DNA of 64,000 nt. It comes from Haliotis rufescens. Lineage: Eukaryota. Position numbers and translations under genes: made by a program. The stretch is from NCBI RefSeq assembly GCF_023055435.1, contig NW_025963879.1, positions 23,436,001 to 23,500,000 of the forward strand, written 5' to 3'. This document shows positions 1-52,000 of this stretch, one piece after another. Every line of letters begins with the position of its first letter. Positions within the stretch are counted from its first letter, which is position 1. Below the pieces are notes generated by a model. It was not told where the DNA came from and made no database searches. It saw only the letters and a program-made list of their open reading frames with translations.

Positions 1-1216
1 TCTTAAAAGTTATTGCTGTTGTACTCATTGATGTCTGGTGCAACAAGGCTGATATTTCCGCCTTCACGTAGGCGGTGCTGACGTTCTATTTCAAGAACGC
101 AATCTTCAGCCTTTTGCCATGCATCTGCAGTGATTCTAGCATAGGTTGCGTTGATCAACTCTTTGTCGCTTGAATGTTTTGTTATGTCTTACCACAAACA
201 GTTCACAGTTAGCCCAGATTAACTCAATATGATTGAGCTCACAGCGTCTGACTGGCGTAGGTAAGAGAACGTGACCGTGTTGTGCCACCACGACATCTGT
301 CTCGAACTTTACTGTTTTCCTATTCAGGGGGATTTTCTCCATGAGATGAACTTTCGTTTCAAAAGGTCTGAAGTCGCCATTGCAAGAAGTCAGTTATTCC
401 TGCACGGTCGTCTTCAGACTGTTCATGGTTGTCGCGACAGTATCTGGTTCCCGGACGTTGTGATAACTGGCGTTATCCACGACAATGACACTTCATGGGG
501 TTGTTCCCCAGTCAATGAACATATCACCATTCGTTTCCTTATGATAATCACCATTTTTCTGTTTTGCCTCGAAAACTAGCTCACATCCATCAATATGCCC
601 CAGATCATGGGTTCCGGTGTGCGAAACAATGACACGATTACCTTTCTCTGATGGTAACATGTTTTTTTCGTCTATCTGATGGTAGCCACTTGTTTGTTTG
701 TTTATTCTTTAACGCCGCACTCAGCAACGTTCCAGCTATATATAATCATCAAGTCAGGATTGTCTGGTACAGACTCGATTATTTACAGACCGCCGTAATA
801 TAGCTGGAATAGTGCTGGGTGCGGCGTTAAACAGCAACAAACAACAACAACAACAACAGTTCTTGACATCATGGGCATCAAACCACGCGATTGGAATACA
901 ATGACATGCATCAAACAAAGACAGCAAGTTTGACCACCCGATCCTGTTAGTCGCCTCTTATGACAAGCATGGGTTGCTGAAGACCTATTCTAACCCGGAT
1001 CTTCACGGGTGGTAGCCCCATGTAGTCAGTGGAATGATTCTTATTCACCAAGGTTTCATCAAAGAAAATGATCTGGGAGTCCTGACTGCAATAGTCATGA
1101 ATGGTGCGGAGATATTGTGATCTTATGGACAGGATTGATATTGTCCCCTGAAAAGTGCTCTGTCGCCGCCACGTGCAGTGTATCGAAATCCCGTCTCCTG
1201 GAGAGCAATAATACAT
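1..1216 (-). mobile_element. Degenerate Tc1/mariner-IS630 superfamily transposase with long D-E spacing (DD83E; Sailor-like), interrupted by a retroposed repeat at 688-1009
   Basis: Minus-strand remnants in the expected order: 'RSQYLRTIHDY..IIFFDETLVNKNHS' (first D, ~1030-1130), 'NRVIVSHTGTHDLGHIDGCELVF' (~570-640), 'SVIVVDNASYHN' (second D at 475-477) and 'HGHVLLPTPVRRCELNHIELIWAN..NKTFK' (E at 223-225). There are 83 codons between D and E, with one in-frame stop (QE*L). Confidence 0.75.
688..1009 (-). repeat. Dispersed retroposed repeat family A (headless, ~250-300 bp, (CAAA)n tail); this copy has an 8-bp TSD and an internal inverted piece
   Basis: Ends in ...gaagacctattctaacccggatcttcacggg (reverse complement of the family 5' end). 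Flanked by tggtagcc at 680-687 and 1010-1017. About 20 homologous copies or fragments occur in the window. Confidence 0.85.
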
Positions 1217-1769
1217 GAAGTCCGGGAAACATGAATCGTGTTTTTAATTTCTTCCCGAAATTTTACTCGAAGTCAGGGGTACCTTCTGCTCAAAAAACGT
1301 GTACACTTTGCGCCTTTTGTCCCCCTACTTTCTTTGTTTTAATTATCATATCTTTGTTGGTATGTAAAACACCCTATCTAGTATAATAAAATAGTTTCTC
1401 TCTGTCTGTCTCAAGTGTAAAGAACCTGTATACATTTCCTACTACAGATTCCATGTCGTGCACCGTGGCTATGGCAATGCACGTGTAATGCAACAAGCTC
1501 CATGGTGTTGACAAAACAAAACAAAACAAATACAGCGTCATTTTGTAACTTTCTAATATGCACATCTAGAATTTTCTCCAACTGACTTGTGTTTTCGTGT
1601 GGATTAGATGGTCTTGGGGTCTTTATCGAAAAGATAAATTTTGGTGCCACAAGAATGACATTGTTTGAAAGAATTTTATTGAAATAATATTCAAACTTTG
1701 TTTGTAGCTGAAATTCCCAGCAATCCCAATTGCCTTATATCGCTGGAATATTTTTAACCACGACAAGAC

Positions 1770-2004
1770 CCGTGAAGGTTAGAATTGGCTTTCAGCAACC
1801 CGCGCATGTTTGTTGTTAGATGCGACTAACAGGATCGGGTGGTCAGGCTCGTTGACTTGGTTGATGCATGTCATCGTATCCCAATTGTGTGGCTCGATGC
1901 ACGATCAGTGATGGCAATCACTGGATGGTCAAGTCCAGACTCGATTATTTACAGACCGCCGTCATACTGCAGGAATATTGAAGCACTAAACAACAAACAA
2001 ACAA
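1770..2004 (+). repeat. Repeat family A copy
   Basis: cccgtgaag...gcgactaacaggatcgggtggtcaggctcg...ggaatattg...aacaacaaacaaac. Confidence 0.85.
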
Positions 2005-2299
2005 ATAATTCTGTGTCATTCAACGTTTGAACTCGCTGCACTGTTTCATGTCTTTTGTTTATGATTTCTGGTTGGCCAATCTATAACCTGATGGACTGGT
2101 CATTAATGTAGTGAGGAGTTCTGTATCCCACGTTTAATGGTATTTCAGTCACTCATGGTGACGGATCCCATACTCAGAGTCGAACCTGATCTTACACATG
2201 ACGTATTACCAACTTGACTACCCAATTACTCCATAAAATCTATGTTACAGGTCAGCTACGTTTTTGGTTTTTTTTGTTTGTTTGTGTAACCATCTATAT

Positions 2300-2520
2300 G
2301 ACTGTAAATAAAAGAGTCTGGAGCAGACAATCCAGTAATTGACGTTATAAGCATTGATCCACGCAATTAAGATACGATGACATGCATCAACAAGTCAGCG
2401 AGCCTGACCATCCGATCCCAGCTACCCGATCCCGTTAGTCACCTCTTACGACAAGCATAGTCGCTTTTTTTACGGCAAGCATGGGTTGCTGTAGACCTAT
2501 TCTAACCCGGATCTTCAGGG
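2300..2520 (-). repeat. Repeat family A copy
   Basis: gagtctggagcagacaatccagt...gttagtcacctcttacgacaagcat...ctattctaacccggatcttcaggg. Confidence 0.85.
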
Positions 2521-2991
2521 ATCGGTCAGCTATGTTTTCAGCATGCAACTCGACACATTGTAAAATGCTGTGGTATCAACCGTGCATGGGATGACTAGTG
2601 TTGCAACAGGAGATTGAATTGATGTCCCATTAAGACGAACCGGAGCGACAGGCTGGCAGTGTGGAAAGGGTGTGACGAGTACAGTGCACGAACATGACTT
2701 GCAAGTATGCATGTGTCATTTCTTTTTTTAAAAATCTGACTATCAACAAGAAGCATGTCCATTTTTTTGGATATTTTTTTCAGGTTTATATCCATAGAGA
2801 AAAGTAAATTCGCATTCCACTCACTGCGTCATAAGGCCAATGAAAGGAAACATGTATGTTAGTTCATGATTGTCAATTATACGTCATGATGACTGTTTAT
2901 ATTAAGGTTTATGGTCCTGTTACCGAACTGATAAAACCAATCCTTTTGGACATGTGATCACAAGAAACATACATCCATGCACTGTTAAATA

Positions 2992-3454: not shown

Positions 3455-4130
3455 GAGAGGGATGACTTCAACTTTCGAATGGTAAACTTTCCCTTCATGT
3501 CGAGCAATATTCCAGCATCTCCAGCCTTTGGTGTTTACATTTCACAACTTGGGAGATACAATCTTTCTACCAAGATTTCAAAGAGCGTCATACGACCCTT
3601 ATTCAGAAGTTGTTTGATCAAGGTTACAACATTTCAAGGCCTCAGTAAAGCTTTCAAAATGTTTTATGGTAGGTTGCATGGTTGTTGGTTGGTTTCTTGT
3701 TTAACGCCGCACTCAGCCATATTCCAGCTATATGACGGCGGTCTGTAAATAGTCGAGTCTGGACCAGACAATCCAGTGATTGATATCATGAGCATCGATC
3801 CACGCAATTGGGATCGATGACATGCATCAACCAAGTCAGCGAGCCTGACCACCCGATCCCGTTAGTCGCCTTTTTACGACAAGCATAGTCGCCCTTTACG
3901 GCAAGCATGGGTTGCTGAAGACCTATTCGGGTAGACATGTGGAGGACATTTCCAAATTGACGCATCAGTGACAAAAATGATTCCCGATGCAGTTCCCTAT
4001 TTTGACTTGTTTCATGTGTTCCCGTATTTTTTCAGGTGAACAATTGACTTGCTATTGCATGTGTTTGTGACGGGTGCCACCGGTGGAGCAGGATAGGCTC
4101 ACCTTCTTGCGAACACCTGGTACCATTACT
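3455..4130 (+). mobile_element. Penelope-like retroelement RT C-terminal/3' fragment, interrupted by a family A copy at 3681-3930
   Basis: Translates to RDDFNFRMVNFPFMSSNIPASPAFGVYISQLGRY, matching the 'DDFNFxIVNFPFLxSNIP..PAYGVYISQL.RY' motif of Penelope-like RTs; later ...LSKAFKMFYGR. A downstream acgggtgccacc..gagcagga..ctcaccttc..gaacacctgg segment resembles the 3' part of such elements. Confidence 0.65.
3681..3930 (-). repeat. Repeat family A copy (near-consensus)
   Basis: tttaacgccgcactcagccatattccagctatatgacggcggtctgtaaat...gttagtcgcc...gcatgggttgctgaagacctattc. Confidence 0.9.
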
Positions 4131-9112: not shown

Positions 9113-9348
9113 GTTGGTTGGTATGTTGTTTAACGCCGCACTCAGCAATATTCCAGCTATATGACAGCGGTCTGTAAATAATCGAGTCTGGACCAGTCAA
9201 TCCCTGTGTTTGACATCATGGGCATGCATCAACCAAGTCAGCGAGCCTGACCACCCGATCCCGTTAGTCGCCTCTCATGACAAGCATAGTCGCCTTTTAT
9301 GGCAAGCATGGGTTGCTGAAGACCTATTCTACCCTGGATCTTCACGGT
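9113..9348 (-). repeat. Repeat family A copy
   Basis: Near-consensus with a doubled hairpin unit; more degenerate copies follow at ~9866-10046 and ~10083-10270. Confidence 0.9.
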
Positions 9349-10543
9349 TCAGCTGATATGTACTCATTCTCTTCTGTCTACTGTTGGTATGTGTATCTCA
9401 TTGTTGCCATTCTAGATCAATAACAAGGATATCCAATGGTTGACTTGGTGATGTTAAAACTTACTGAGATATATAGAACACAAGTCAAAACTTTTAAAAT
9501 ACCAAGGAAAGAAGGCCAAAGGGAGATAACTTTTCAAGTAACTACATCCCTACCCTAAGTTCTCTCACTTCCCAGGTCTAGTGGACTTAGGGGGATAAAA
9601 CAAGGACTGGCCAGCTAAGGGCCTGTATACTGTGTCTGGGAGGGGTATACATGTTAAACTGCGGCATGGGATCTCAATGATAGAGGTATCAACCCTGACT
9701 AGTACAAGCAGTCACACATACACCCACACATGCATGCAAGTCGCTGTAAAAATTTCACCCAAAACTCCTGTACCTGCTTCAATGATTATATTATACACCA
9801 CTCAACATTTCATGAGGGTACCTAGTTCATCCTGTCACAACACAAGAAAAGAAATGTGAAATGCGGCCTGTTAATAATCAAGTCTGGACCCGACAAAACA
9901 GTGATCAATATGAGCACTGATGCCATCGGGGTATCATGATACCCAATCAACCAGGTCACCGAGTCAGAGAGCATGTTAACCATTTAGTCGCCCCAAACGA
10001 CAAGCATATATTGCTGGGGACCTGTTCTGACCTGGATTCCCCATGGGGAGGAAAAGAAAAAGAGGACAATTAGAGTTTTATTCGTTTGTTGTTTAATACC
10101 CCACTCATATTCCAGCTATATGATGGCGGACTGTAAATAATTGAGTCTGCTCTAGTGATTGATATCAAGAGCAACACTCAATGTCTTCAGGATATGATGA
10201 CACTCAATATACAAAGTCATCAAGTCTCACTACCCGATCCAATAAGTCGTCCCTTACGACCAGCATAGGTTCCTGGTGACAGCAAGAACCAAATAGACAC
10301 CTGAGTTCTTTTAAAAAATACATCAACAGAAATAATACACTAACAATACCATGGGTAATAGCCAGTACCAGGAAACTTGCACAACTCTTGTAATGCTAAA
10401 ATGTCTTCTCTGGTGTTCGATTGCCAAACTATGAACCCTTGGCAGACAGTATAAATGTGGGATGTCACCATCATCTCCTAATCTCATTCCTGTTGTCGTT
10501 TCTGTTGTAACACAGGCCACTCTCACTGATTCACAACCTGTGA

Positions 10544-16500: not shown

Positions 16501-19500
16501 GCAAGGGCATCAACTGATTACATAAAAGTCAAGTTTCAAACCTTGCCGAACTAGGCTGAAATTTCTGCATCATATTTTGGCTGGCCTAACGAGTCTATGA
16601 ATAGGCCAATCAAAATTGTGTTATGAAATTGACATCCAGTTTGCAAACAACATGGTGACTGCATAGGTCAACTGCAGGATTTGCAAAACATGTGTACCAG
16701 CAACTGGGCGTCAACAGATAATTTCCTCATCTTTTCACGTTTTTAATCAAGGTGCTCAGGTGATTTGATGCATTTCCCAAGGTCAGACCTATCTTATTAC
16801 AATATAGATTTTGATAATCGATGAGATTGTCGTGACAGGGTGCTGTCGCAATTTTGTTTGTAGCAAATGCAAGTGATATGAGAGGTGGAATCTGATTGGT
16901 GAATAGGAAGGACACAGAAGGGACATAACTTGTAATAGCCACTGTATTAGTATGTAAGAGACACTAAATTCAAGCCTAGTTTGGCAAGGGTGGAAACTGG
17001 ACTTCAATAGTCAGTTATCTCCCTGCCTCGGGAAGCTGTGTCAGTTGATGAACCAATGATAAAATAATTCCTAATTCTCCACTGCTCCACTGGTACTTGA
17101 TGGACAATGGAACATAACAAATAATGATAACCTACAGCTGACAAGTTGACAAAGCCTGAGAGTTTCAGTGTTGACACCATCTTGTCTGTTGTCTGTACAG
17201 TTCCACTGGCATTGTCGGAGACAGCATCCCTGATGTAGAGTTTACCGACCGGCTTCAGTATCCTGCAGATTTCCCCGAGTCTGTCCATGTCCTGTTGGAT
17301 GACCCCAGGTTGATGCAGGCCACAAACTGCTACGTCAAACACCGAGTTGGGATGTGAAGCTACAACACACATTCCACTTGTTCAGCAAAAAACACACCAC
17401 AATGACGGTTTCAACTGAGAGTTGATTACAATGCCCTTATACATACATTCGTATTAATTAAGAGATGAAATGGCAACTTTATGAAAAACTACTTTTGTCC
17501 TGATGCTGTTCTAGTTAAATAAATGTGTTTGTTTAGTGTTATTACCCCTTGTGGATCTGGACCCCCATATGATCATAGCACTATCATATGTTTGTTGTAG
17601 CGTCAAGAGCGTTTTGGGCAAGTGAATCCTGGGTTAGAATAGGTCCCTGTTGAGCTCCAGATAATGTTTTGAGCCACTAAATATTTCCTCAAAAGTTATT
17701 ATTCACATTGGATTTAGATAGTTTTCTTTAGGTATTCAATATATTTTTACTCCTTAAGTCCAGTCTATTGGGTATTTTTACACCAACGACTATTTGATAA
17801 AACGACTGTATATTACAACTGTTAGATAAAATGATGGTATATCAGCAGATCGTGAAATTCACTTAAGGGCAGTTACATTAGGAAAAGCTTGTGCGACAAA
17901 CAAACTCGATTAGCAATAGATTCCAATGGAAAAGCACATTGTGCCTAGTCAATGTATCTTAAACAGTTGCTGACTGGTGATTAGTGCCTTTCTTACAATG
18001 CTAGGTCTTGTAGGCATAAAATGGTTTCTGAGAGGGAGCCGCAAGACATAGATGGGTATACTACTATTTATTTATTTTTAATTATTTACAGGGATTGTTA
18101 TGAAACAGGTTTTCAAGCTAAAATACTCAAATGTTAAGAAACAGGTGGGTTAAAAAAATTTGAATACCCTCTAAAAACTGTGGAAATCCACCAAAATCAA
18201 ACCCCTGGATTAAATACCCAAATAAGCAAAAGCTTATCTAGACCTGTGAAATGTTATTTCAGGTGACTTCCAATTTTGAACAGTTTGTGTGCTGCCCCCT
18301 GTTGCATAAACTGACAACAGAGATATACAAGTATATGTGTCTAATTAACAATAAACGAGATATAGCACCTTGTTAAGCATTATTTACTACAGTAGAGTTC
18401 ATGTATGTGTGATGCCTGCATTAGATCAGTATATAAAGACGTGTAAATTAATACAGATAAGCAAGTTGAAAAGGATACACTGATTAATTATGCAACAGTG
18501 TTGTTATACATGTACTATTGGGGTTTTGAAACTTTTCATGTGTATTTGTATGCAAGCATTTTTAAAATTGTGTTTGTTGTTTAACACCACACTCAGCAAT
18601 ATTCCATCTATAGACGGTGGTCTGTAAATAATCATGCATCAACCATGTCAGCGAGCCTGACACCCTGACCCATTTAGTCGCCTCTCGCGGCAAGCATGGG
18701 CTGCTAAAGAGCAATTTTAACCCAGATCGCCATGGGACTTGTAACTGACACTGAAAGCAACTTTAAATTACTTGGGTAATGGTGAGGTGAGGTTAAATGG
18801 GGTTTAACGTAGTGTCCAAGATTATTGCACTTATATAGTGACGTGCATGCATGTGTATGTATGTGTGTGTGGCTGCTTGTACTAGTCCGGACTGATTCCG
18901 ATTTATAGTGCTACCATGCCGCAGTTTAACATGAATACCCCACTCAGACACAGTATACTGACTCCGAGCCGACCAGTCCTCGTTTTAGCTCCTTAATGCA
19001 GAGCGCCAGACAGGGTAACAACAAGTACCATCTTTGAACGTCTTTTGGTATGACGCGGCTGGGGATCGAACCCCGGACCTTCCGCTCTCCGGGCGGACGC
19101 TCTACCATTAGACCACGGAGGAGGTCCTTGGGTAATGGTGATTCATTTGGAACACTGAACACAAATGAACAACTTATCTGTAACTTGGTCCGTGTCAGTC
19201 AATTGCATGTTGTAAGAAGCTATTTAATTAGATCAGTGGACATGTTTTGCTTAATGTATGCAAATGTAACCTGACTAGGTGGGATGTTGCTCAAAGTCAT
19301 AATATCAACCACTGGTTTATTGGCCCAGATTTGATTATTTCCAGGCCTCCACAACATAAATGCAGCTGGCTGCTGTGCAGAGGAATATAAAACCATTCTG
19401 ACATTAGGATATGCTAGACAAGAATTGTAGTGAGTGAAAATAAAGACTTTCTATAAATATCTCTACCTATATCTACATGGATGATGCTCTTCACTCATTA

Positions 19501-24800: not shown

Positions 24801-27800
24801 GACTGGAGCGTATTTCGCACACGGGTTAATAGTTCCCACATGCAGGTCCTTAAGACTGGTAGGATTGGACCATAGACTGTAGTGCTGAATTGAACATCTT
24901 CATTGTGTGTTATGATAACAGATATTCATTCCATGAAGAGGTAATTTTGACAACACCTGAATCTCAGTCTATTGATGTGATTGTAGCTGCAGATTCGGTT
25001 TAACTAATCCCATGCTGTAATTAGTAACAATGGTTGTAATTAAGGAGCATTTGCATTGTGTTGTATCAGACAAGCCTAATGTGCATCAAACATCAAAGGC
25101 TCCTCTAATGACAGGCCACCTTGTAGGGTAAGCTTATCTTGTCAATGTGTCACCCAGTGTTAGACAGCTACAGAATAAACATCAGACGTTGTTTTACTGA
25201 GGGCATACAAATTCAATTTGCTTAGGTGTCATTTTGTCTCTCACTTCTGTAGTGACAGGTGTGATGTCTTTCAAATAGACTTAAATAGTGTGCTTGGGTA
25301 GGGTCGGTGCAGTAGATAACCTTGTAGTGGACGGTGCAGTGTAGCAAACAGGTATGAACTGATACTATCAAGGTGGTCAGTGCAGTAGAGGACCTTGTAG
25401 CACTGTGGATGGTCAGAGTTAGAAATTGGCACTTCTTCTATAGTCCATTCCAAACTGCCCAATAGTTAAGGTATAAGGACTAGTAGATATTTGCCATCTT
25501 AAGGTTTTGTTATATATAATCGTTATAAGGACTAGTGGACCAAAAACCTTAGTTTCTGTGGTGCAGTGTAGCCAACAAGTATGCACTGTCACAAAGTGGA
25601 AAAATACCAATTACTAAGGTGACTAAAAAATCAACTTGGAAGTTATGTTTCTCCTAAATTTAGTGCGGTTATCATCAATTGTCTGCATTACTTTGGTGTT
25701 CTCTCTCGACACAGATGGTCTCTGTGGGCTATATAGTTATATATATTGCAACATTGAACACTGAATTAGTACATGCATAAATACAAATTGAAAAATAATT
25801 TTTGTTAGAGGGAAGCACAGGACCAGTTACTCGTCTGCAAGCAAAGATGACCCCACCATCATCAAATATCATTACATCTCTCGATGAATGGAGGGCCAAG
25901 AAGCCACAGGTTCAGACACAGTCGAAGCCTACTAGCAAGAAAGTTGGAATAGTGGCACCTTTGAGACCCGGGTAAATATTGTTAGCCTTACTGTTTGAAT
26001 GTTACTTAAGCATGCTTATAAAGCTAATCTTAAAATGTGGATTGTTCAAAGTTTTCTGTTATGGTAAATATTGTTTTCTTCTGATTAATCCTTTTAATGC
26101 CACTAATGTCAGTCCATGGAAGCGCAGTAAACAGTTACAAACTAGCCACCAATTCTCTTTCTAGGAAACGAGCAAACAGCAGTTCTGGTACTGACGTTTC
26201 CCCAGTTACATCAACCAGTGACAGGTTTGTTTAAATTTATGTTATCCGAAAGTAAGGTGTATTGGTTGATTATTTTACTTCACAAGCCTTGTTTGACAGG
26301 AATTGCCCGCATACATATTTGACAGAAAGTGTGACACATGAAATAGTCTCATTGGATATTATGGATAATGTGCCGATTATTCCCAATTATGATGCATTCA
26401 TCCAATACAATGCCTACCAGTAACAGTTTGATGGAACAAACAGGATTGTTTTAATGTAAAATCGTACAATTCCATTTGTGACATTTGTGTCATGTTTGTA
26501 ATGTAATAAATAGATATATCAAGTTGAAGGTTTCTGCATTTTGTTCACTTTGCATGCTCAGAGCTGTTTTACTTTCATGTTTTTGATGAACATTTCAAAA
26601 CATTGTTGTAGCCAAAGGCCTGCATTAAAACGACAGCGGATTTCAGGAAGCAACATTCGAAGGAGTGGGTCCCAAAGTAAATTGGAAGTTTCGAGTAACA
26701 TTCGAAGGAGTGGGTCTCAAGACAAATTGGAAGTGTCAAGCAAGAGATCTTTAAAGAGAAGCAACTCCTCAGCCAGTTCTTCCAAACCTGAGAGAATAGC
26801 GCGATCCCATACCCGAGGATATTCAGCTGGTCGCCCTGTTGTCCAGAATAAAGACGACACAGAGGGTCCAGGTGCTAAGTTACCCAAAATGCCAACCCTG
26901 CCCTGCACACCAACCTTTATGAGGTGAGTATTTATACAGGAGATAATGTATTCATTTGGGGACATCTTATGCAATAATAAACCGTGTTATCTGGTGGGGA
27001 TTCTGAATTAGAATAAGCTCCCAGCAACATATGCTGGCTATGAGAGGTGACTGAACAAATTGGAACGTTAAGCTTGGTAATTTTGTTGATAACCTGTCAT
27101 CATACCCTGACAATGTGGTTTCATTTTATCATAATACCAGTCACTGGATTGTCTGGTCCAGATTTGATTATATACAGGCTTAAGTTATATAGCTGGAATA
27201 ATAATGATACTGGTGAAAGCGGCATTAAACAACAAACAAACAATGATTGATATTATCATCTCTGAGATTTAAGAGATGTCACTTTGTCGCAATGAGATTT
27301 GAGTAAGATATGGTTGTTTCATAATACCAGCACCACCTTGTATGTACAAATTGTGCTGTCATTTTCAGGAGAAAGCAACTGGCTGCCGGGTCTCCACGAG
27401 TTAAAAGTACTGAGGAGCAGGAGTTGGAACAGATAGCACAGATGAGGAAGGAGTTGGCCAAGAAGAGGAAGATGGCCATGGATTCCCTGCAGAAAAGTAA
27501 GACTGCTCCTGGGTATGTCGCGGTACATAACTCACGAGAACCCACTATAATACAGGACTTCAAGTTCAGCACAGACAGTAGAATAAAGTCACAGCACCAG
27601 GACATCCAAGATGAGAGTACCATTGATTTTGCCAAGTGTCTGCGGTCTAATACTGCCTCCGCAACACAGGTGAGGATTTTGAATGGTGCATAAATCTAAG
27701 CAACTGAATACAGATGCAAGTTGATGTGATTCATATAAACTGTGTAATAAGTTGGCTGGTTTGTTGGTTTGTTTAATGCTGCACACAGATATGTTAGGAT

Positions 27801-30800
27801 TCTGTAAATAATCAAGTCTGGATCAGACAATCCAGTGATTATTATCATGAGCATCGATCCACACAATTGGGATCAATGACATGCATCATCCAAGTCAGCG
27901 AGCCAGCCACCCGATCCTGTTGGTCGCCTCTTACGACAAGCATAGTCACGTTTTATGGCAAGCATGGGTTGCTGAAGACCTATTCTACCCCGGATCTTGT
28001 GTGATAAGATTCCTCTCTGTGCACATGCATATATCTTCTCATCTATGCATCCTTTCATACTATATTATATAACTGTTAATACCAAAATCATTTTGTCAAC
28101 AATCCTAAACTTTTGGATTCATTTTGGGTTTGATTATTAGCTAAGCTAACTGACAAGTAGTGATTGAACATGTTGAACGTTGGCTTCACTGACAAGAAGT
28201 GATTTGAACTTTAGGCTGAAACCAGATACAACTTCTCTACATCTTCTTTAATATTTAAGGGTCCAAGAAGTTTAACCAGGCCACAACCCTTCAAGCTGAC
28301 AACCAGCCACAAACCAGCACCACAGTCGGAAAAGTTCCTGTCCATGGCACAGTCTGTTGCAGCCTTCCATAGATCGACACCTGACAGATTCAGAAGAAAA
28401 CCCCGAGGTAGGGACTGTAAAGCAGTGGAGAAGGAAGATAATCCGTAGTGAAAACATTTTGATGGATCAAAGCACCCTCCGTGTTTGTTTAGGTGAAAGG
28501 ATGAGGATTAAGATAGTAATCCCTGTCAGACACCTTGTTGAAAGGGAGTAGTCATTATGTCAGTCCGTCAATTGATTAATCCTTTTGAACTGTGTGTGTT
28601 GATAAGGCAGGGTATAAGTGATGACATGCTAGATGTTATCTAGATGATCAACTTCATTCGACTTGGAAAGTTGTCACACTGCGTTCACATGTTGGATACT
28701 CCATGATTCAAGCTGAAATAATCCTTATCTGTGAGTGAATTAATATTTCTGCATTATTTAATTGAAGTAGGGAAAATTAGTATTTATGTTGTTTTTTATG
28801 TTCTGACAATAAAGCACTAAGCAGTTCTACAACATTTCACATGTGATGTCAATTATCAGCCTCCAGCTCTGACAAGAAGTTACTCAAGGCACGGTCACCT
28901 CACGCCCTTCGCCTCACCCAGCCAGAGACGCCGAAACTAGAGACCCGTCATCGCTACCGGCCGCCGACTGCACCCAGTCAGAGAGACCTTGAAGACCAGG
29001 AGTATCAGGAGATTATGAAGTAGGCTTCACTTCTACTCAAATTATTCTTGCTTTTGGTAGCTTGGTAGTACATTGCACATCGACATTAAATTTTAAAAAT
29101 ATATTTCTGGATGAGTTTCAATCAGCCAAGTCCTGCCAGAAACAGTATTGAATATTCTATAGCCCACTAATCCTATTTCATATGACAATGTACATATTCC
29201 ATGTATACATGCAGAATACCATGCATGTATCCAGGTAAATGGGGTTAAAGGTAAAAATAACAAGAGTTTGCCACTAACGTGGCTATATCCCCGCCCCTGT
29301 TGCAGAATTTATGACATAATTAAATCTAAACAAACCCTAACCTTTTTTAACCGAGGTGGAACTTGTCATGGAAATTGTAAAAAAAAGATGAGTTTGGAGT
29401 CCATCTTGTTGCCATGGAAACATAAAACATTAATATTTCTAACAAAATTTAAATAGCAAATGGCACCAGTTCAGCATTTACCTGACAGACCTGCAAAGTT
29501 TGATGAAAAAATATTGAACGGTTTATGAGTTATGCTCCGGAAAGAACCTTACCCTCACAGAACCTAAGTCCATCTTGTTGCCATGGAAACATAAAAAATT
29601 TCTTAAATTTCTCAATAGCAAAAGGCACCAGTTCAGCATGTACCTGACAGACCTGCAAAGTTTGAACAAATATTGAACGGTTTATGTGGTATGCTCCGGA
29701 AACGAACCCTACCTGTCTAAAATTTCTAAATAGCAACAGGCACCAGTTCAGCATGTATCTGACAGACCTGCAAAATTTCATGAAAAAATATTGAACAGTT
29801 TATGAGTTATGCTCCGGAAACGAAACTTGACGGATGGACGGACGGAGCCCGTTTCTATATCCCCGCCAACTTCATTGGGCGGGGGATAATAAATACTGAA
29901 GGTACATCTTGATAATGGTAAAAGAAATGCTTTTTGTTTATTATCTGCTGTCTGACATATCTTTGATAACCAGAGAGCAGCATTCCCAGAATATTTAGAA
30001 CAATATTTACTCACAATATACTTCAAGTAAAGTGAAATGATAGTAAAGTGATATATGTTCAAGCCGTGTTTACAAATGACCGCAGTATGTTATGCTCAGA
30101 AGCAGACAAGGTTCTAATGCACCATTAACTAATATTTTTTCCTCTTTTCCTCACAGATATCAGTTTAAGGCCAACCCTGTGAACACGAGGATCATGAGTC
30201 AGGCTACAGGACTCTACAAACCAGAGCCAAAACCAACAACCAAGCCAGAGGAGTTCAACCTTCACTTAGACAAGCGTTTTCAGGAACGGCCAAATAAAGC
30301 TTCAGATGAAGAGGAATTTGTTTTCCATGCTCAGCCAGTGCCGAGGAAGATTCTGGAGGGAACAGTGGTAAGAACACTTGAACTCTAGAAAGTATTTCAA
30401 ATGAATGCTTTTTAAGTGTATTGACACAATTTGCTGCGAGGTTGCGGATGCAGTGTTGAGCAATAATCACTCTCAGTGTAAGGGTGAATCATTGTTTGTC
30501 TTTCATTATGAATACGTTTTATCAACAAGGAAAGTTGTTTTGTTTATTTTATCTTTGGTCATTTGTTATTTCTCAACTTAATCCTTGCTTATTTATCATA
30601 TAAAACATTTTTAGGTATTACCAATTTACAGTTTTTCACCCGATGTTACTGTATGTAAATTAGCTTGGAATACTGAGACTTACACTTTCCTGTTTCTGAA
30701 GGGTGTAAAGCCAGCAAGGGAGATACCTTCCACTGTGCCTCAGTCACCAGCCTTTGCTCTCAAGCATCGGGTACGGCTCCCTGTTGAAGTACCACAAGAA

Positions 30801-35673: not shown

Positions 35674-38600
35674 TTAGTGGAAGAGTGTTCGATCTGCTCG
35701 TGTTCCGAAGACCAGGCGCCAGGACACCGGGATCTTCCACTCTGTAGGTCCGGTTGCCTCCTTCCCCACCTCACTGCCGGGAGCTGCCTGAACAAACAAA
35801 TCACATGATTAACATGAGTTTGTCACAAAACACCCGATTCATGATGCAATGAAGTGTAAATGGCTACATTAGTGAACTGATGAATGATGCAAACTTTTGA
35901 TAATCTGGTTTAAGAATATGCTTTACTATAACTGGTTGCAGGTATTTTTCTATGTTTAACACTCAGCAATATTCCAGCTATATGACGGTGGTCTGTAAAT
36001 AATGGAGTCTGGACCAGACAATCCAGTGATTAACATCGTGAGCATCAATCTAGGCAATTGGGGTACCATGACATGCATCAGCCAAGTCAGCAACCCTCGA
36101 TACTGTTAGTTGCCTCTTATGATAAGCATAGTTGCCTCTTATGACAAGCATAGTTGCCTCTCATGACAAGCATAGTTGCCTCTTATGACAAGCATAGGTA
36201 AAGGAATTTCTCTTAGTGCAGGCAAATAAGGAGAAAGTCATTATTTTGTTCAAATTTGGGAGTTCAAAGTTGTTATTTGCCTAATTAATGAGAAATTAAA
36301 AACACTGAATTTTAAACATGCATTCAATCAAAATATATTTAAGTGAGCATTAAATCCTTTCCTCTATATTGGTCCTGTCACAAGTCTACAAAACCATAAC
36401 AGTCCTTGACTGAATTGTTAGCCAAACACCACATGGCAATGACAACTTCTCTTGATAGAACAATTTAAAAAAATCACTGGATTGTCTGGTCCAGACTCGA
36501 TTATTCTGAGACTGCCGTCATATAGCTGGAATATTGCTGAGTGCGGCGTAAAACAACAAACAAACAAACAAAACATGACATTCTCTTCACTTGATACGTT
36601 CAAAAGCCGGAAGTGTGGAGTTGTCCATATAGAATAGAAGTAAGCAGCTTCTAGATTCATGCAATGGTGGACAGTCACGATTGCTCCATAAGACATTGTT
36701 TCAAAACACATACTAATACTTTGATCTCTACTAACTGGTGTCATTTGCAAGATGGGACTTCAACAAATATGTTCACCGTACATGTGAAGCCCCATGTTAG
36801 ACATTGATGACAACCTTTAATAAGTTATGTCAATTTCACTACAATCTGATTTGCTGCTTACCTTTAGGGAGACAATCCTAAGCCAATTGTTCAACTGTGT
36901 AACCATGGCAACAGCATCATGGGCATTGTCCCCTTCTGAACAGAACATCATCATCACAACAACTGATGTGTCCATTTTGCTGAAACAATAGAACTTGCAT
37001 TGACAACAATGAAACATGAAACAGTTTAGACATTGATAGTCCAGAAATCTCATTATCTTTGGCACAAAGCAATGGAATCAGGTTGACCCTATGACAATGT
37101 AACAAAATGAATTGAAACTTGACAAATTAGCATATTTGAGCAAAGCTTGGTTTAATGTGGTCCTGATGTAGCACTAGTATCTGACACTTATCCATCTTTG
37201 ATTATCCAGTGTATTATATCTCCATTCTTTTATGATAACTACCATGGACCCATTTGCTGCCATATTTTTGTAATGGAAGTGACTGCATCAGCTTCACCGT
37301 TCTTATCACTAACTTGGTGGGGGTCGGGTAGCCTAGTGGTTAAAGCGTTCGCTCGTCATGCCGATGACCCATGTTCGATTCCTGACATGGGTACAATGTG
37401 TGAAGCCCATTTCTAGTGTCCCGCGGTGTGATATTGCTGGAATATTGCTAAAAGTGGCATAAAACCATACTCACTCACTATCACTAACTTGAGTTTGGTA
37501 TGGATCTACTTGATGAGAGCCCTTGATGTTTAAAATACACTTGCTGGAAAAGATGACAGGGGTAGGAGTCCCTTTGCTGCAAGATGTTCCCAGTTATATT
37601 TGAGACAGCACACAACTTCGTGAGTTGATAACTGGATATAGAGCTGCTTCAATTGTGAAAGAACATTGTAATTTGATTGGGCAGCTATTATTAGTGTTGT
37701 GTTATTCAAACCAGACTGAAAAGGAACGGTGGTGAATGAGTCCATGGTTATATCCTGATAGAATAGAGATATGATACACTGGAACAATGAGGAAGACAGT
37801 TATAAAACCAACTTACAGATTCTCAAAGAGTTGTTTAGCAATGCCACTTCCTGGCATGTAGAGCAGCTTCTGTTGCGAGCTGCCATCGATGGTGAGTTCA
37901 GTCGGGGTAGCTCTTCGCTCCAGCTCCTGCCAGCCTAGTGTCGTGCGGAACAGGTCACCACACTTCCTGTCCATCGACTCTGATGGGACGAACCGGAACT
38001 GGGATCTTTCATACAAAAAGCAGACGTCAAACATACTTCTCATGTCTATTTCTCGCTAACTGGAAGAAAGATTAGGTCGGCTTCAACTTTAAACAGCTTC
38101 AAGTCATATGGCGCTGATCATTACTGGGGCGAACTTGGTATTCCCACCCAATGACCAGCAGATCCTGGCAGCTAAGGGAAGCAACTCAGACATAGTTAGC
38201 ACCTATGCATTTTGCAGAATAGATGTTAAGATTGGTACCAGTGTGTGAAATAGCATGTAAACATAATGAGCTGGACAGGCAGGAGAGTAGAGACAGTGTT
38301 TATGGCGTTAATGACTGACCCTTGTAACTGGACATCCAGTCTCTCCTCTGAGTAGCTACTGGTCAGTATGATCACCTGCCGGAACTTCTGGAGCCTCGTC
38401 CACTCCGCCAGCCATGTCATGAACTTCTTCTTCTTGCCCTGAGTTAATACAGACATACATGCAGTTCATTCTCTTGTTTCACTCCCCTGCCCTGACAGTC
38501 ACACATGTCGTATTACTATATTGATGCAAAGAAAACATTTATAAAGTGTATGCTCCGTCTGAATCAAATGTTATATAACCAAACCATTCGAAATAGACAG

Positions 38601-41600: not shown

Positions 41601-44600
41601 TATTAGCAAAGCTTACAAGTCCACAGGGTACAAGAATTAACAAAACTCTGGTAGTCTGAGACAAGTAAAATTTGAAGGACAAGTGACATTTCCTTGTGGT
41701 CTACCAGTTTTACCATTAGGTAGATGGCAACTCTGTAGAATATCATTTTTGCGGACTAGTGAAAATATAAATTAATTTCTAACCCTTACTGACCAAACAG
41801 AATTTTATTCGAAATGGCTATTGGACAAGTTGCTAAAGTCATGGACTATTTCATTTTTTTCGTAATTTGAATTATCATTTATTTTGAAAAAAATAATGTT
41901 AATTTCAACACCATGAACCACACCATAGTGCCACACATCATTCCGTGAATATCCGGGGTGGACTAGGTCTTCAGCAACCCATGCTTTCCGTAAGAGGCGG
42001 CTATGCTTGTCATAAGAGGTGACTACCAGGATCGAGTGGTCGCCGACTTGGTTGATGCATGTCATTGATCCCAATTGCGTGGATCGATGCTCATGATGTC
42101 AATCACTGGATTGTCTGTCCAGATTTGATTATTTACAGACCGTCGTCATATAGCTGGAATATTGCTGAGTGTGGCGTTAACAACAAACAAACATTCATCC
42201 CTGTAGCATGCCCACAGAAGAAGCCAATAATTCATGGTCAGACTCTGGATTGCATGATGTCAATCACTGGATTGTCTGAGAGAGACTCAGTTATTTACAG
42301 GCTGCAGTCATATTGCTGGAATGTTGCTGAGTGCAGCATAAATAAAAACAACAACGTTTGTTTATGGACAAATGGACAGACAGTAGTCAAAGTTCCGTAC
42401 CATGAGCTCACATGACTTCTTAATGCTACCATGCACTTCCAGTCCAATCTTTTGTTTGAGTTGTATACCCTACAAAGTAGGGTTTAAAAAATAAGTCTTA
42501 AGACTCATTGAGTTGTTCCTCCCCACGGAAATCTTTAGTAAAAGGCGAAAGATTTATGCGAGGTGAAGAGAAACCAGAGTACTGCAACTAAGGAAATGTT
42601 TAGACCCATATTTCAAAGACATTATTCAGAAATTGGTGTTTTCTGTCATACTTATCACAATTATTTAATTCTCTTAGCTATTGAATTGGAGTTGTTGGTA
42701 GATTACCTCATAGATGGTAACACAATTACTATTGTGGTTTAAAGAAAATTAATTATGTGTAAAGATTTAGCAGGTATGTTTTCATTCAATCTTTCTTCAG
42801 CATATCATTAGTGAGTCAGCAAGCAATGGCCGACGTTCACCCAGTTTTTCTATTTATAGAATAAATCATGCCACAATGTACACACTTTTCACTCACTTCG
42901 GCCTGGTCATAAGGATGAGCGAGAATGATAGCCTGAAGCACAAGGAATCCTCAAACGCTTAACTATAAAGATATTCCTTCACCAAAAACTATAAGACTCT
43001 TGCAATCAGAAGGATGTTCTTTTTGTTCTTCCATAAACCTAACGTAGATGAAACTACTCAACATAGTGATTAAGATCACTGCTGGAAACACATTTAGATT
43101 CTGTCCTGTCTGTACAGCAATGATACTTGCTCCCTGGTTGACAGCAGTAAAACTGGCCCTAAACAAGCATAAACTGATTTAATACTTTAGGGAAGGTAAT
43201 GCATCATGTGTCATTTCATAACAAATATTTATTAGGACAAGAGACCATAAAATATTTCATGGTCCCTGTTACCACTTGGATGAGATATTGTAGTCAGGCT
43301 TGACCTGCTGGCCATGAATGCCAGTCGATTTCTGGCTTGACCATGACCCTGACCATCTATTAATAGCTCTACCTTGCCAGTTGCAGCTGATACCACCAGG
43401 CAGACCTTGCTGACAAAGGTGGGGCTATAAATAGCTTAGATATAAACGCAAGGGTGGACGTGGACGGTAACACGCAACTCAGTTTCTGTTCAAATGTGAC
43501 TGTAGCTATGTTATTGTAAATCAGTGGGATTTGTAACAAATATCACAATTGAGTTCAAATAGTCTGGACTCTAAAGTGTTGAAGTAATACAGATTCAAAT
43601 ATATTATTTGATTAAAAAATGGTCAGGTTTTCTTTGAGAAGCTACTTCACCTGAAAACCTAACAGGGCAGTATACAATCTGATCTAATCCCATATTTGTT
43701 AACTCTGGTTTCTCTTCACCTCGCATAAATCTTTCGCCTTTTACTAAAGATTTCCGTGGGGAGGAACAACTCAATGAGTCTTAAGACTTATTTTTTAAAC
43801 CCTACTTTGTAGGGTACACAACTCAAACAAAGAATAGACCTAATTAGAGAAATTCACATGTTAGTTGTTTACTGCCGCACTCAGCAATATTCTATATATA
43901 TGGCTGTCTGTAAGGAGAATAATAACTTCCTATTCAGACATTATTCTATTTGTCAATGTCATTAAAATCAGATCTTGCACTCCGATTTGATGTCTCTCTC
44001 TTTCCATCCGTTGGAAGTATGGTTCACTATCCTGCATGAGTTAAATTAAAAATGTTCTCAAAAGAGATGCTAAATGCCATTGGTTTGCTAATGTATACAC
44101 AATTCTTAAATAAATTTAATAATAAAACGCAAATCACTGAGAATGTAATCCTATCAGGGATTTCATATCTAGACCTGCTCAGACGGAGCAAATGTCAGTA
44201 AAGAGTCCCAAATTGGGATTACACATTTCCCAATTTTATAATATGTTAATATTGTTCTTATCACTAATGTGAGGGCTTGGTCCAGGTTACATGTGTATTT
44301 CTCTGGTAACAGAGCCAGTAAATTAGAAGAGGCTTTAGTGTTAAAAAGAAAGCTAGACCTTCAGAAAATCCCAGTTCTAGATATCAAACTTTACCCAGAT
44401 TCCCAAGACTCTATTTGACACTGACATTATACAATGAAAATCATGGAGAATACAGTTCAATTTGTCTTAAAATTCTCAGAATATGACACCATAGATGTTT
44501 AACATTGCTTAAAAATGCAATGAAAAAATAGTTCTATTGTAAAAAAAGTTCAATTTGGGGAAAGTAGTTTTGCAACATTCCAGAGGCCAAAAAATTAAGT

Positions 44601-47059: not shown

Positions 47060-47547
47060 TTTTAAAGTATACCCTTCACAAATAGATTGAATCCAAAAGG
47101 TCTGAGCGGCCGTCTCACAAACGTTCTTTGTACACTGTCAAACCCTCAAAGCATGCAGTTAAAGAGTGACATATCATGCTTCCATGGACGCCGCCATACT
47201 TGACTAGTACTTTTGTTCATACTTCGTTTGTCCTTACCACAACCCCCAAACGAACAAAGCACCATCACTTTCCACTGTTAAACATCTATTCAAAGATACA
47301 AGGACATAGGAGGCACCCAATTTGTTTGATTTGTTTAGATATCATTGAATCGAGTAATTGAGATTACAAAAAAAATGATTTATATGCTTTTAAACGATTT
47401 AGTGACAAAAATTGATACCAAATCTATTACCATTTCAGTGTTTGATATCACTAAATCGTCTTTATACATATCACAAATTCGATACGTATTTGTTCATATC
47501 TAAAAATCGAATTCGTCTTATATATCAATACTTCACTTCTTGGTTCG

Positions 47548-47650
47548 ACCCGTTACGATCCGGGTTAGAATTGGTCTTCAGCAACCCATGTTTGTCGTAA
47601 GAAGCGACTAAGGGGATCGGGTGGTCGGGCTCGCTTACTTGGTTGATGCA
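47548..47650 (+). repeat. Repeat family A, 5' portion
   Basis: cccgttacgatccgggttagaattggtcttcagcaacccatgtttgtcgtaagaagcgactaaggggatcgggtgg. Confidence 0.85.
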
Positions 47651-47746
47651 CTCACTCTCAAAATACAGTAAATAGTGAGTGAGTTTGGTTTTACGCCGCT
47701 TTTAGCAATATTCCAGCAATATCACTCACTCATAATACAGTAAATA

Positions 47747-48151
47747 GTGAGTGAGTGATTTTGGCTTTACTCCGCTTTTAGCAATATTCCAGCAATATCA
47801 CGGCGGGGGACACCAGAAATGGGCTTCACACATTGTACCTATGTCGGGATTCGAACCCGGGTCTTCGGCGTGACGAGCGAACGCTTTAACCACTAGGCTA
47901 CCCGACCGCCCCCAAGTTAGTGATAAGAAAGGTGAAGCTGATGCAGTCACTTCCATTACAAAACTATGGCAGCAAATGGGTCCATGGTAGTTATCATACA
48001 AGAATGGAGATATAATACACTGGATAATCAAAGATGGATAAGTGTCAGATACTAGTGCTACATCAGGACCATATGAAACCAAGCTTTGCTCAAATATGGG
48101 TCTTCGGCGTGACGAGCGAACGCTTTAACCACTAGGCTACCCGACCGCCCC
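47747..48151 (-). mobile_element. Composite SINE B insertion: SINE head + 185 bp copied from PSMG2 intron 5 + full SINE, 13-bp TSD
   Basis: TSD aatacagtaaata at 47734-47746 and 48152-48164; 47914-48098 is a near-identical reverse complement of 37131-37315. Confidence 0.88.
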
Positions 48152-49091: not shown

Positions 49092-52000
49092 ATGAGGGTA
49101 GCTGTTATAGGAAGTGGGGCTGCTGGTCTGTGCGCCTTACGGCTTCTCAAGGAACACCCCCGGGGTTTCCATCCCGTGGGATTCGAGCTCAGTGCAGAGG
49201 TGGGCGGAACATGGAATTACACAGATAAAACTGGAACAGATGAACGAGGCCTGCCGGTTCAGTCTAGCATGTACAAGAACCTACGGTAAGTACATTATCG
49301 CAGTAGGAAATCGCGGATCGCGGATAAACTGTTCTGCTGTTCATAGCACTAATGAAACTTTGATTCAAGCACATGCAGTTTGTTTGTCTGTTAACTCATT
49401 TGTTACAATGTATAATGAATGTATCTTTTGTGTATAAGGGAAGCAGAACTGAGTTGGCAATATAGTTTATTGATAGCTACAGGTGCACATGGTCTACGTT
49501 GAAGGCAAACATATTCGAAGATCTCTAGCTACAGAGTTACCCAAGGAATGAGGTTACTGGGAGTTATCTCCCTTAGACCATCGATGACTATGACGTAAAG
49601 ACATAACAAACTATTAACAAATGTCACAATGCATAACTTGAATGCGACAATGTTGTAAGATAAAGGGTTAATTGTGTTATCAACCGTGACGTCATACACA
49701 TGAACAGAATTGATGACGTAACACGCATGTACCAAATCGGAATCCTGTTAAGATCCGAGGTTGAATAGGTCTTCAGCAACCCATTCTTGCCGTGTAAGGC
49801 AACTATGCTTGTCGTAAGAGGTGACTAATGGGATTGAGTGGTCAGCCTTGCTGACTTGCTAAATGCATGTCATCGTATTCCAATTGCGTGGATTGATGCT
49901 CATGATGTCAATCACTGGATTGTCTGGTTCTGACTCGATTATTTGCAGACTGCCATCATATAGCTGGAATATTGCTGAGGGTGGCGTTTAAACAACAAAC
50001 AAAACAAGGAAAGAAATATAGATTTCAGATAATCTAATTTGATCACTGTAACTGTACCATTTTAGAACGAACCTTCCGAAGGAGATCATGGCATTTCCTG
50101 ACTTCCCCTTTGACTCAAGTCTGCCGTCTTTCATCCAACACACAGATGTTGCCGAATACCTTCGGCGTTATGCTCAACACTTTGACCTCTACAAATTTAT
50201 CAAGGTAAACCTGTAATGATGGATTTACAAAGATTGAGTAACTGTCGATGAATGTCTGTATATAGTAAAGGAATCACATCAACATGCCTATAGCAACAAA
50301 AACGAAATGATGTATTAAATCATATTATATCTGTAACAAAGCAAAACATATTCAAATCAAACATTTCCGACTCCATACCAAATTTCCCACACATCAAACA
50401 AGAAATATCTGATTCATATTACATCGACAGAAATATATCATATTCACAATGTAAATACACACAGTTCATGACATTTTGGTCTCTGTCACCACCTATTTGT
50501 TTAAACCCATGAACTTGCACAATCCAACAATATGACACTGGAATAGTTGTTTGATATCATCTATACATGTATATACTTTGTAACTTGTATGTATTTAAGA
50601 TTGCATGTGAACTATATTATGTAAACTTATTGTTTGTGTACTCCAAAAAGAAATAAAATCATAAAAAAACATGCCTATTTTAGTGAGACAGTTTTATGCT
50701 GAATTTAGTTATGTAGCATCACTATTACAGTGTAAAGGGCTCCATGTTTGAAGAAACTCCCTAAATAGGGAACCCTTGGAATAAGTCATCCATATGGATG
50801 ATTACTAAGTATGTTTTACTGCTACTGATTTTAATATTGAATTTTTAGTATTAAAGGTTTCAGTATAAATTGTTTTCATCATATGTATTTCAGTTCAAGA
50901 CATTGGTTGAACATGTTTCACCAGTGTGTCAACCAAACAACACTTCTGCCATCAAATGGAATGTGACATATTCTGCAGCAGACAACAGGAATGAGCAGAC
51001 GACAGAAGAGTTTGAATCGGTTATCGTCTGCAATGGGTATTTGTATAAAGAGCGATGTCTTGTAAAGATAAGCTGGTCGAGGTTCCCTCGGCTGGAATTC
51101 CTACACTCAAAATGAAGATTTCATAGAGATGTAATCAGATAACATTTCTTTGGCTTCATGTCCATGTTGGAAAAAACCCAGCAGACTTGAACTTGTTATT
51201 CAATGGAAACTCAGGGAAGTAATCAATATTGGAAAATATTATGTTGAAGCCAAGTGGCATTTCTGAAGACATATATATTTGTATGTGAATATAACACTTG
51301 TATATTTTGATCAGGCACTATTCTACACCCCTGATACCCGACACCCCCGGGCTGGATGTGTTTGAGGGGGAGGTACTTCACAGCCACAACTACAGGACAC
51401 CGTCAGCGTTCCGTGGGAGGAAGGTGGTTCTCCTGGGGGCGGGAGCCTCAGGGCAGGATATCTCTATCGACGTGAGCTCAGAGGCCAAAGAGGTATTTGT
51501 TGAGTCAAAATGAAATGTAGTACCTATATACAGTTTATGCAAAAGACAAGATAAGTTGGATGTGGTATTGTTGGGACTGAGGAGTGCAGTGAAAATGGGA
51601 ATGGTTAATTTTGAATATCACATGATTCACGAAGCTCAAAAGTTCCATGGACTGTCCCAGAAATAATGTTACATCACCTAACTGAATATGCCTGTTGTCC
51701 CTGAACAAAGTCATTACAATAAGCAACATTACACTGTTTTATGTAGCATCACTTAATTAATTAGTTTTTATTGGGATTTTTCTTTCTTTTGGGGGGACTG
51801 ACTTTTGTTACCTTTGAAACTTTATTAAGCTTTGAAATTCATGTGCCCAATGAAAAGTGCAGCATTGATAACTTCTCTGAAGTTAACTGGAGCATGCAGC
51901 TCAGATTAAGTGCATAAAGAATACGATCCCATGAAGATTATAAAGAGGTGCAAATTTAATTTGTATTTCAAAACATTTCAGGTAAGCTAAAGAATCTTAT

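Follow-up and report, generated by a model that had tools for sequence, protein, structure and literature searches.

A predicted pseudoknot module at the head of an LP-SINE-like repeat of Haliotis rufescens, of its likely partner LINEs and in virus-like 3' ends: a candidate exoribonuclease roadblock

Introduction

LP-SINEs have been described in Haliotis, Littorina and oysters as elements that begin with ~70 bp matching the 5' ends of three LINEs, two of them Nimb and one RTE (PMC4758252). The named families are Hdi_LP, Hmi_LP, Lsa_2 and Sgl_LP, and the ~70-bp 5' domain is common to Nimb-17_LMi, I-3_DR and RTE-9_CPB (PMC4758252). In the sections of that work devoted to the head, it is proposed as a promoter, with Pr77 mentioned as an analogy, and no secondary structure is given (PMC4758252, Matetovici 2016). 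A literature search for the LP-SINE names among CC-licensed PMC articles and bioRxiv returned PMC4758252 alone.

Two other systems are close to the one described here. The HDV-like ribozymes Pr77 and L1TcRz are, like the module that we analysed, a short 5' hallmark of a LINE and of its non-autonomous partner, and define +1 (PMC3185411, PMC5786205). The exoribonuclease-resistant RNAs (xrRNAs) of flaviviruses (class 1) and plant viruses (class 3), and coremin, are again compact pseudoknots in the 3' UTRs of (+)RNA viruses (PMC8374639, PMC12397905, PMC10520033). The xrRNAs are found in 3' UTRs, and the rings of the solved ones measure 15–16 nt (PMC8374639); in plant viruses, Xrn1 is stopped at the base of the first xrRNA helix (PMC12397905). 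They have been sought in cellular RNAs as well, and none is known from retrotransposons according to the 2021 review in its treatment of this question (PMC8374639), whereas our module, whose likeness to xrRNAs is a predicted one, does occur in cellular retrotransposons.

Here we report the analysis of a dispersed repeat, family A, in a 64-kb stretch of the H. rufescens genome (hereafter the window), and of related heads elsewhere.

Results and Discussion

Family A looks like an LP-SINE

Family A is a dispersed repeat of ~245 nt, of which nhmmer, with one real copy as query, found 27 pieces in the window. Some of these are halves of one and the same copy, so that the initial annotation of this DNA, made from its letters alone, had given a fair count with about 20 copies or fragments in 64 kb. 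The common 5' start that it had noticed was confirmed, all eight near-full copies that it named beginning within ~2 nt of one point; the start that it spelled out, CCCGTGAAG, is exact in only two of the eight, and the true start lies 1–2 nt further 5'. When 20 further stretches of the genome were added to the window (264 kb in all; six of them adjoin it and 14, covering 140 kb, are scattered), 33 of 102 pieces started at reference positions 1–5, and the sequence upstream of these 33 had nothing in common. A rough extrapolation from nine such heads in the 140 kb suggests some 10^5 copies genome-wide. Many of the remaining pieces belonged to copies in which the hairpin is duplicated (22 nt), and were the second halves of these; this duplication is common in family A, with several tandem units near 36135–36220, and at another locus (L012) the pseudoknot half lies in tandem repeats.

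Upstream of the C-run, only two positions were biased, namely the base before it (A in 69%) and the one preceding that (G in 55%, n = 95 heads), and thus there is no hidden tRNA head. Longer copies headed by a tRNA were absent, nothing upstream being common beyond 2 nt in the 95 heads or in 30 exact-match loci, and a 5'-truncated tRNA-derived SINE was rejected on this ground. In agreement with the reported lack of tRNA A/B boxes, the B box is absent from the element, one weak A-box-like match carries a mismatch, and ARAGORN counted 0 tRNAs. The (CAAA)n tails ascribed to the near-full copies were seen, with the exception of the copy at 48 kb (47548), which is tailless and interrupted after ~110 nt. 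The sequence interrupting this copy (47547 in Table 1) holds a weak Rfam tRNA match (47843–47901, minus strand, 30.5 bits), which is probably the head of another SINE. Family A copies also adjoin a divergent pair of U5 snRNA genes (42467–42582 on the minus strand and 43700–43815 on the plus strand, 94 bits each, Rfam).

The target-site duplication (TSD) reported for one copy is present, its 8 bp at 680–687 and 1010–1017 flanking the copy at 1009, and TSDs of at least 9 bp were found in 20 of 60 full-length family A copies. The copy in question (688–1009) contains an inverted segment of its own 3' part (753–845) and a second 3' end, all within one TSD, and CpG-type changes affect its head (940–1009) twice, in the hairpin and past the UAA. 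The features of this copy, and the other copies of the window, are collected in Table 1.

Table 1. Features of the family A copy under study and further family A copies in the window
Feature	Position	Strand	Remark
TSD 5' copy, 8 bp	1010..1017	.	base 1010 may double as element's first A
S1 5' strand CCCG, start of pseudoknot and element	1006..1009	-	
L1, single U	1005..1005	-	U in 21/23 heads
S2 5' strand GAAGAUC	998..1004	-	
S1 3' strand CGGG	994..997	-	following UU can pair with 5' GA in intact copies
L3 with AGAAU	986..993	-	AGAAU in 21/21 aligned heads
S2 3' strand GGUCUUC	979..985	-	
Linker: stem Z 5' strand CCC (970–972) and GCUU junction	965..978	-	
Hairpin W, near-invariant	950..964	-	one G>A change in copy at 1009
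UAA and stem Z 3' strand	943..949	-	CAGG here, CGGG in intact copies
SINE body	857..942	-	not common to LINEs or viruses
Inverted segment of family A 3' part, within copy at 1009	753..845	+	
3' end resembling Nimb/I-like LINE 3' end, then (CAAA)n-type tail	688..759	-	
TSD 3' copy	680..687	.	
Family A copy	1768..2004	+	pseudoknot deletion
Family A copy	2295..2522	-	hairpin duplicated
Family A copy	3687..3928	-	5'-truncated, hairpin duplicated
Family A copy	9116..9349	-	hairpin duplicated, internal deletion
Family A copy	18569..18736	-	internal deletion
Family A copy	27759..27998	-	first 8 nt absent
Family A copy	41943..42193	+	hairpin duplicated
Family A 5' half	47547..47656	+	broken by other sequence
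Family A copy	49744..50004	+	hairpin duplicated

By its sequence, family A looks like an LP-SINE with a LINE-derived head of ~70 nt: the head is of the Nimb-17 type, a tRNA head and Pol III boxes are lacking, and TSDs and a tandem-repeat tail are present. The described LP-SINEs likewise have a ~70-bp LINE-derived head instead of a tRNA head, TSDs and a short tandem-repeat tail (PMC4758252). In the scallop 'Nimb-17 homology' block shown in Fig. S2 of PMC4758252 the same C-run, AGAAU and hairpin with UAA can be recognised by eye, and the Hmi_LP consensus, compared by length alone, has 255 bp (PMC4758252) against the ~245 nt of family A. The SINE type and the sequence of its head are already known (LP-SINE, PMC4758252); to the account given there, family A adds a fold backed by covariation, copies in viral 3' ends, a group of LINEs as candidate partners and a tandem with an HDV-like ribozyme.

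Covariation supports a 5'-terminal pseudoknot

The fold supported by the comparison of 23 divergent heads is a predicted 5'-terminal H-type pseudoknot, composed of S1 (CCCG/CGGG), a 1-nt loop, the 7-bp stem S2 and the AGAAU loop, and followed by a stem Z that encloses a near-invariant hairpin, W, and the UAA. The heads, one per family (19 animal-type and 4 viral), were anchored by sequence, with two rows re-anchored by hand and a 1-nt slip allowed for S1; since the families are related and not independent, the swap and shuffle counts given here are not probabilities. S2 paired in 133 of 161 cells (strand-swap mean 96.7), S1 in 90 of 92 (mean 78.8, with the slip) and stem Z scored 265 (mean 214.7), values that 0 of 20000 swaps reached in each of the three cases. 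On a plain MAFFT alignment of 21 heads, two-sided changes affected all 7 pairs of S2 and 2 of the 4 pairs of S1, and the proposed structure contained 45 cells with two-sided changes, as against 6–21 in slid controls and a count reached by 0 of 500 shuffles. When the four viral heads were taken alone (n = 4), Z was unsupported in a fixed window (10815 of 20000 swaps), and the counts for S1 and S2 were 1708 and 851 of 20000. The stem of hairpin W is invariant in 21 heads, so that covariation is uninformative on it, and for most rows this invariance was built in by the hairpin-based search; in the LINE heads, which were found via ORF1, W varies in its loop and in the UAA only.

Classical H-type pseudoknots have a 4–6-bp S1, a 1-nt L1 crossing a 7-bp S2, 0–1 nt between the stems and an A-rich L3. 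The module has this geometry in all these points; unlike the classical knots, it stands at the 5' end of an RNA or within a 3' UTR instead of past a slippery site, and a conserved hairpin domain is coupled to it. The 5' end pairs into the loop that S2 closes, which measured 12–15 nt in 17 of the 23 heads and 17–77 nt in the other 6, the 77 nt belonging to one amplified family. In L075-type loci L3 has expanded to ~70 nt with AGTA repeats within an amplified family, and AGAAU still adjoins S2.

The topology first proposed for this module was not confirmed. In the initial annotation, CCCGU paired with a downstream ACGGG, and the loop GGGUU of the GAAGAUC/GGUCUUC stem with a downstream AACCC; in our comparison, it is instead the 5'-terminal CCCG that forms the pseudoknot with the loop CGGG, and the strand past the UAA pairs with the one just before the hairpin. 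The GAAGAUC/GGUCUUC stem itself is present and is the covarying S2, and the hairpin with UAA is likewise there in family A. Both of the other pairings are complementary in family A, and CCCGU/ACGGG occurs in the nested MFE structure, but neither covaries across the related heads: given similar freedom, 4992 and 5627 of 20000 swaps reached the observed values, 45 and 136 of 500 shuffles matched the observed pairing and covariation, and on the MAFFT alignment the two together had 4 cells with two-sided changes (385 of 500 shuffles). Since they are complementary there, and one is part of the MFE, an alternative fold with these pairings may form in family A alone.

The view that the module is not a canonical HDV fold was upheld: its covarying helices come in another order than the nested double pseudoknot P1-P2-P3-P1.1-P4 with conserved G1, its first base varies, and Rfam gave no match on it, either at gathering scores or at E up to 10. 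Folding of single heads, by a method whose output contains no pseudoknots, was uninformative, with z values of -0.86 and -1.49, and in 14 chance matches to the pseudoknot pattern just 1–4 of the 7 S2 pairs formed. The claim that the sharp 5' end carries a conserved cis-acting RNA module of other than tRNA origin was borne out.

The module heads LINEs, in tandem with an HDV-like ribozyme

The 18-nt motif of hairpin and UAA was found at 120 or more metagenome loci and in 5 viral contigs; a phage collection gave no match. The metagenome loci represent several animal repeat families with unrelated bodies. One of them (cluster 2; L067, L103 and 10 more) is a SINE with the module upstream of a tRNA-like head and A/B-box-like stretches, an arrangement also present in the scallop MESC SINEs. 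Among nine matches in prokaryote assemblies, six scored 35–70 bits and lie in eukaryote-like DNA (L351, L353, L355–L358); in one prokaryote-assembly match, the 5' half of a LINE, the module stands ~400 nt before ORF1 in host-like DNA. These animal-type repeats within prokaryote assemblies are likely host or chimeric contamination.

By using the ORF1 of this LINE as query, and not the hairpin, 83 ORF1 matches were obtained in the H. rufescens genome, and the module was upstream of ORF1 in 30 of the 30 Nimb/I-like LINE loci examined. These LINEs have two ORFs, a zinc-knuckle ORF1 and an APE-RT-RNase H ORF2; the clade name (I-group, Nimb-like) was assigned from the domain order and from PMC4758252. 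With these domains, and with a 3' end that aligns with the tail of the SINE, they are likely its partner group. They are often clustered or nested in each other and in family A copies (L419–L436). Small-RNA reads numbered 35 on the SINE; on a LINE head they were antisense only, 104 of 114 coming from one ~31-nt species in one run. This piRNA-like RNA (L426:820-850) has one start in all 104 reads and spans the knot with which the LINE begins. Sense reads were too scarce for 5' ends of decay intermediates to be read from them.

Of the 30 LINE loci, 27 belong to a young Nimb/I-like subfamily in which the module is preceded, without spacer, by an element of 58 nt, and the other 3 to a subfamily that begins at the module. 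The element (e.g., L377:865-922) can be parsed as a minimal HDV-like ribozyme in which P4 is nearly absent, and shows what we take to be P1 (7 bp, with a G-U at G1), P2, P3 (3 bp), L3, P1.1 and the C in J4/2. All helices pair in 45 of 53 parsed full-length copies, and the match to RF02682 (29 bits, E 0.0012) is below the gathering score of 44. On this basis, the element is predicted to be an intact HDV-like ribozyme. The genome holds 751 exact matches to the module pattern of this subfamily. We drew 58 distinct heads from two sets, the ORF1-found LINE loci and the module-pattern matches (L359–L388, L437–L466): 53 started at G1 of the ribozyme, 5 inside it and 0 at the module.

These starts bear on the main idea of the initial annotation, self-cleavage, here taken to mean that the module would be a ribozyme of a class not yet described, and would free the element by a cut at the base of S1. 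The module is in fact located wholly 3' of a sharp start, as are the L1Tc/NARTc HDV-like ribozymes (PMC3185411), it combines invariant unpaired bases (AGAAU, UAA) with a pseudoknot, and six LINE clades are reported with 5' ribozymes (PMC5786205). An HDV-like ribozyme cleaves immediately 5' of its own sequence and gives a product with a 5'-OH (PMC3185411). A cut, or a transcription start, at the edge of the module would instead drop the upstream ribozyme from new copies; its retention in 58 of 58 heads, with 0 starts at the module, argues against both, with the caveat that the upstream helix abuts S1 and could block the cut. Moreover, the first base of the module is not conserved, no Rfam ribozyme matches it, and a cut 100–150 nt from a viral 3' end would presumably remove the end needed for replication. 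We consider self-cleavage quite improbable. Of the functions first suggested, namely to self-cleave, cap or protect, protection is one that the module may have, while cleavage at its 5' edge is disfavoured by the ribozyme kept in 58/58 heads and by the viral 3' ends. Likenesses to the twister, pistol, hammerhead and hairpin ribozymes were also considered and dropped, the covarying helices being in another order. In its account of twister permutations, PMC10085705 reports no further ones.

The module lies in the 3' ends of virus-like contigs

A covariance model built on 16 animal-repeat heads only, with no viral heads, scored the module at 65.8 bits in L159, 55.9 in L156, 41.1 in L158 and 38.9 in L157/L154, and all the other search-pattern loci from the viral scans at 22 bits or less. 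L154 and L157 are two records of nearly one virus, which speaks against an assembly chimera. In the four distinct virus-like contigs the module is in sense, 6–101 nt past the last stop codon and 27–83 nt from the contig end, which need not be the end of the RNA. Pfam domains were RdRP_3 and a nodavirus-type capsid in L158, RdRP_3 in L159 and a Peptidase_A21 capsid in L157; the long ORF of L156 had no Pfam match, and this contig has a second, tandem copy of the module, cut by the contig end. Looser viral scans, in one of which 100 loci were scored of at least 120 listed, gave no fifth virus.

In viral 3' ends a DNA promoter would be useless; as the module is found there, on the sense strand, it likely acts as RNA. 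According to the LP hypothesis of Matetovici, the head would be an internal Pol II promoter in DNA, perhaps a dual one like Pr77, which is promoter and ribozyme at once (PMC3185411), and the RNA fold a minor and separate matter. The place of the head at the 5' end of both LINEs and SINEs (PMC4758252) and the purine with which most families begin, before the C-run, agree with a promoter. It gives, however, no account of the module in RNA-virus 3' ends or of the compensatory changes, and none of the 58 HDV-headed copies starts at the module. The families start 1–2 nt before the C-run with different first bases (GA, A, G, U), which often extend S1; a G before the first A occurs in 19% of the heads in one family (n = 27) and in 11% in a second (n = 9), but in 55% of 95 family A heads, so that there is no general extra 5' G and this test is mixed. 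We regard a promoter as the main function of the head as very improbable.

A predicted exoribonuclease roadblock

With self-cleavage and an internal start both disfavoured, trimming back to a roadblock is the simplest route to a sharp end. We therefore propose that the module is an xrRNA-like exoribonuclease roadblock that sets the 5' end of the element, a prediction that we hold to be evenly poised between right and wrong. What is observed is where the module occurs and how it is placed, that S1, S2 and Z covary, and that the 5' ends fall 0–2 nt from the base of S1. As for the mechanism, a SINE copy would be transcribed passively within a host Pol II transcript, and after decapping or an upstream cleavage Xrn1/Xrn2 would degrade this RNA toward the element until stopped by the knot, either by itself or together with a host protein bound to it. 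The host read-through RNA would thus be trimmed as far as the first base pair of the knot, giving a fixed start with no self-cutting, and the protected RNA, which would keep its LINE-like tail, would be a template for the reverse transcriptase of the Nimb/I-like LINEs. The viruses would obtain a 3' subgenomic RNA by the same block. Where the HDV-like ribozyme, with its 5'-OH product, comes first, the module would be a second barrier, or have another role, e.g., in the translation of uncapped RNA.

A roadblock is in keeping with a module placed in viral 3' UTRs, in one case twice in tandem, and we count in its favour the covariation, as a sign of selection on the RNA, and the fact that the families without the ribozyme start 0–2 nt before S1 with a variable base that often extends it, as compared with the halt site of the plant-virus xrRNAs (PMC12397905). 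The module resembles the xrRNAs in occurring once in tandem, in the predicted pairing of its 5' end into a short loop and in a boundary at the base of the first helix, and the 12–15-nt loop of 17/23 heads may be the analogue of the 15–16-nt rings (PMC8374639). It differs from the known ones in secondary structure, the H-type knot coming first and the hairpin domain after; classes 1 and 3 and coremin gave no Rfam match at E up to 10, and the coremin sequence as given in PMC10520033 differs by eye. The loops of 17–77 nt in 6/23 heads strain a fixed-ring model, and this model leaves the hairpin domain unexplained, the most conserved part (hairpin and UAA) being 3' of the knot. The absence of starts at the module in the 58 heads also means that the HDV-headed subfamily has no copies trimmed to the knot, which counts against the roadblock; a pure 5' barrier is, in addition, redundant behind an HDV-like ribozyme, and yet the module is intact there.

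Both the intact module behind the HDV-like ribozyme and its place just past viral stop codons would be explained if the module mainly bound a conserved host factor, as a cap mimic or a cap-independent translation enhancer. It would then serve two kinds of uncapped RNA, those of the viruses from the 3' UTR and those of the LINEs from the 5' end, the SINE would keep it to reach the ribosomes making the LINE protein, and the bound complex would incidentally fix the 5' end. The hairpin stem, invariant in 21 heads including the ORF1-found LINE heads, suggests recognition of a specific sequence, 5' ribozymes are reported to be linked with translation (PMC13725137), and tombus-like viruses use 3' CITEs (PMC10520033). 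On the other hand, the module is also kept by non-coding SINEs of several animals, and the sharp 5' end requires a second mechanism. We judge the binding of a host factor as the main function rather unlikely.

A roadblock of this kind would be, as we suggest a shade more tentatively than the roadblock itself, an undescribed xrRNA class common to (+)RNA viruses and animal LINEs and SINEs, a cellular one with some 10^5 copies in one genome; it would also provide retrotransposons with a third route to a 5' end, in which a programmed, incomplete decay takes the place of internal promoter or ribozyme. In the CC-licensed PMC articles and bioRxiv, we found no account of the fold, of its viral occurrence, of the tandem with the HDV-like ribozyme or of a retrotransposon xrRNA, and the searched supplements of PMC10690425 contained no match.

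Conclusions

The module bears on how promoterless, non-tRNA SINEs obtain a unit-length RNA. With its 70 nt and dozens of natural variants, it makes the questions of SINE RNA and of cellular xrRNAs testable in one in vitro assay, and the tandem of HDV-like ribozyme and module offers a control, made by nature, in which cleavage and protection can be told apart. A structured RNA present in retrotransposons of molluscs and other animals and in viral 3' ends points, whatever it does biochemically, to an exchange of cis-acting RNA parts between viruses and transposons.
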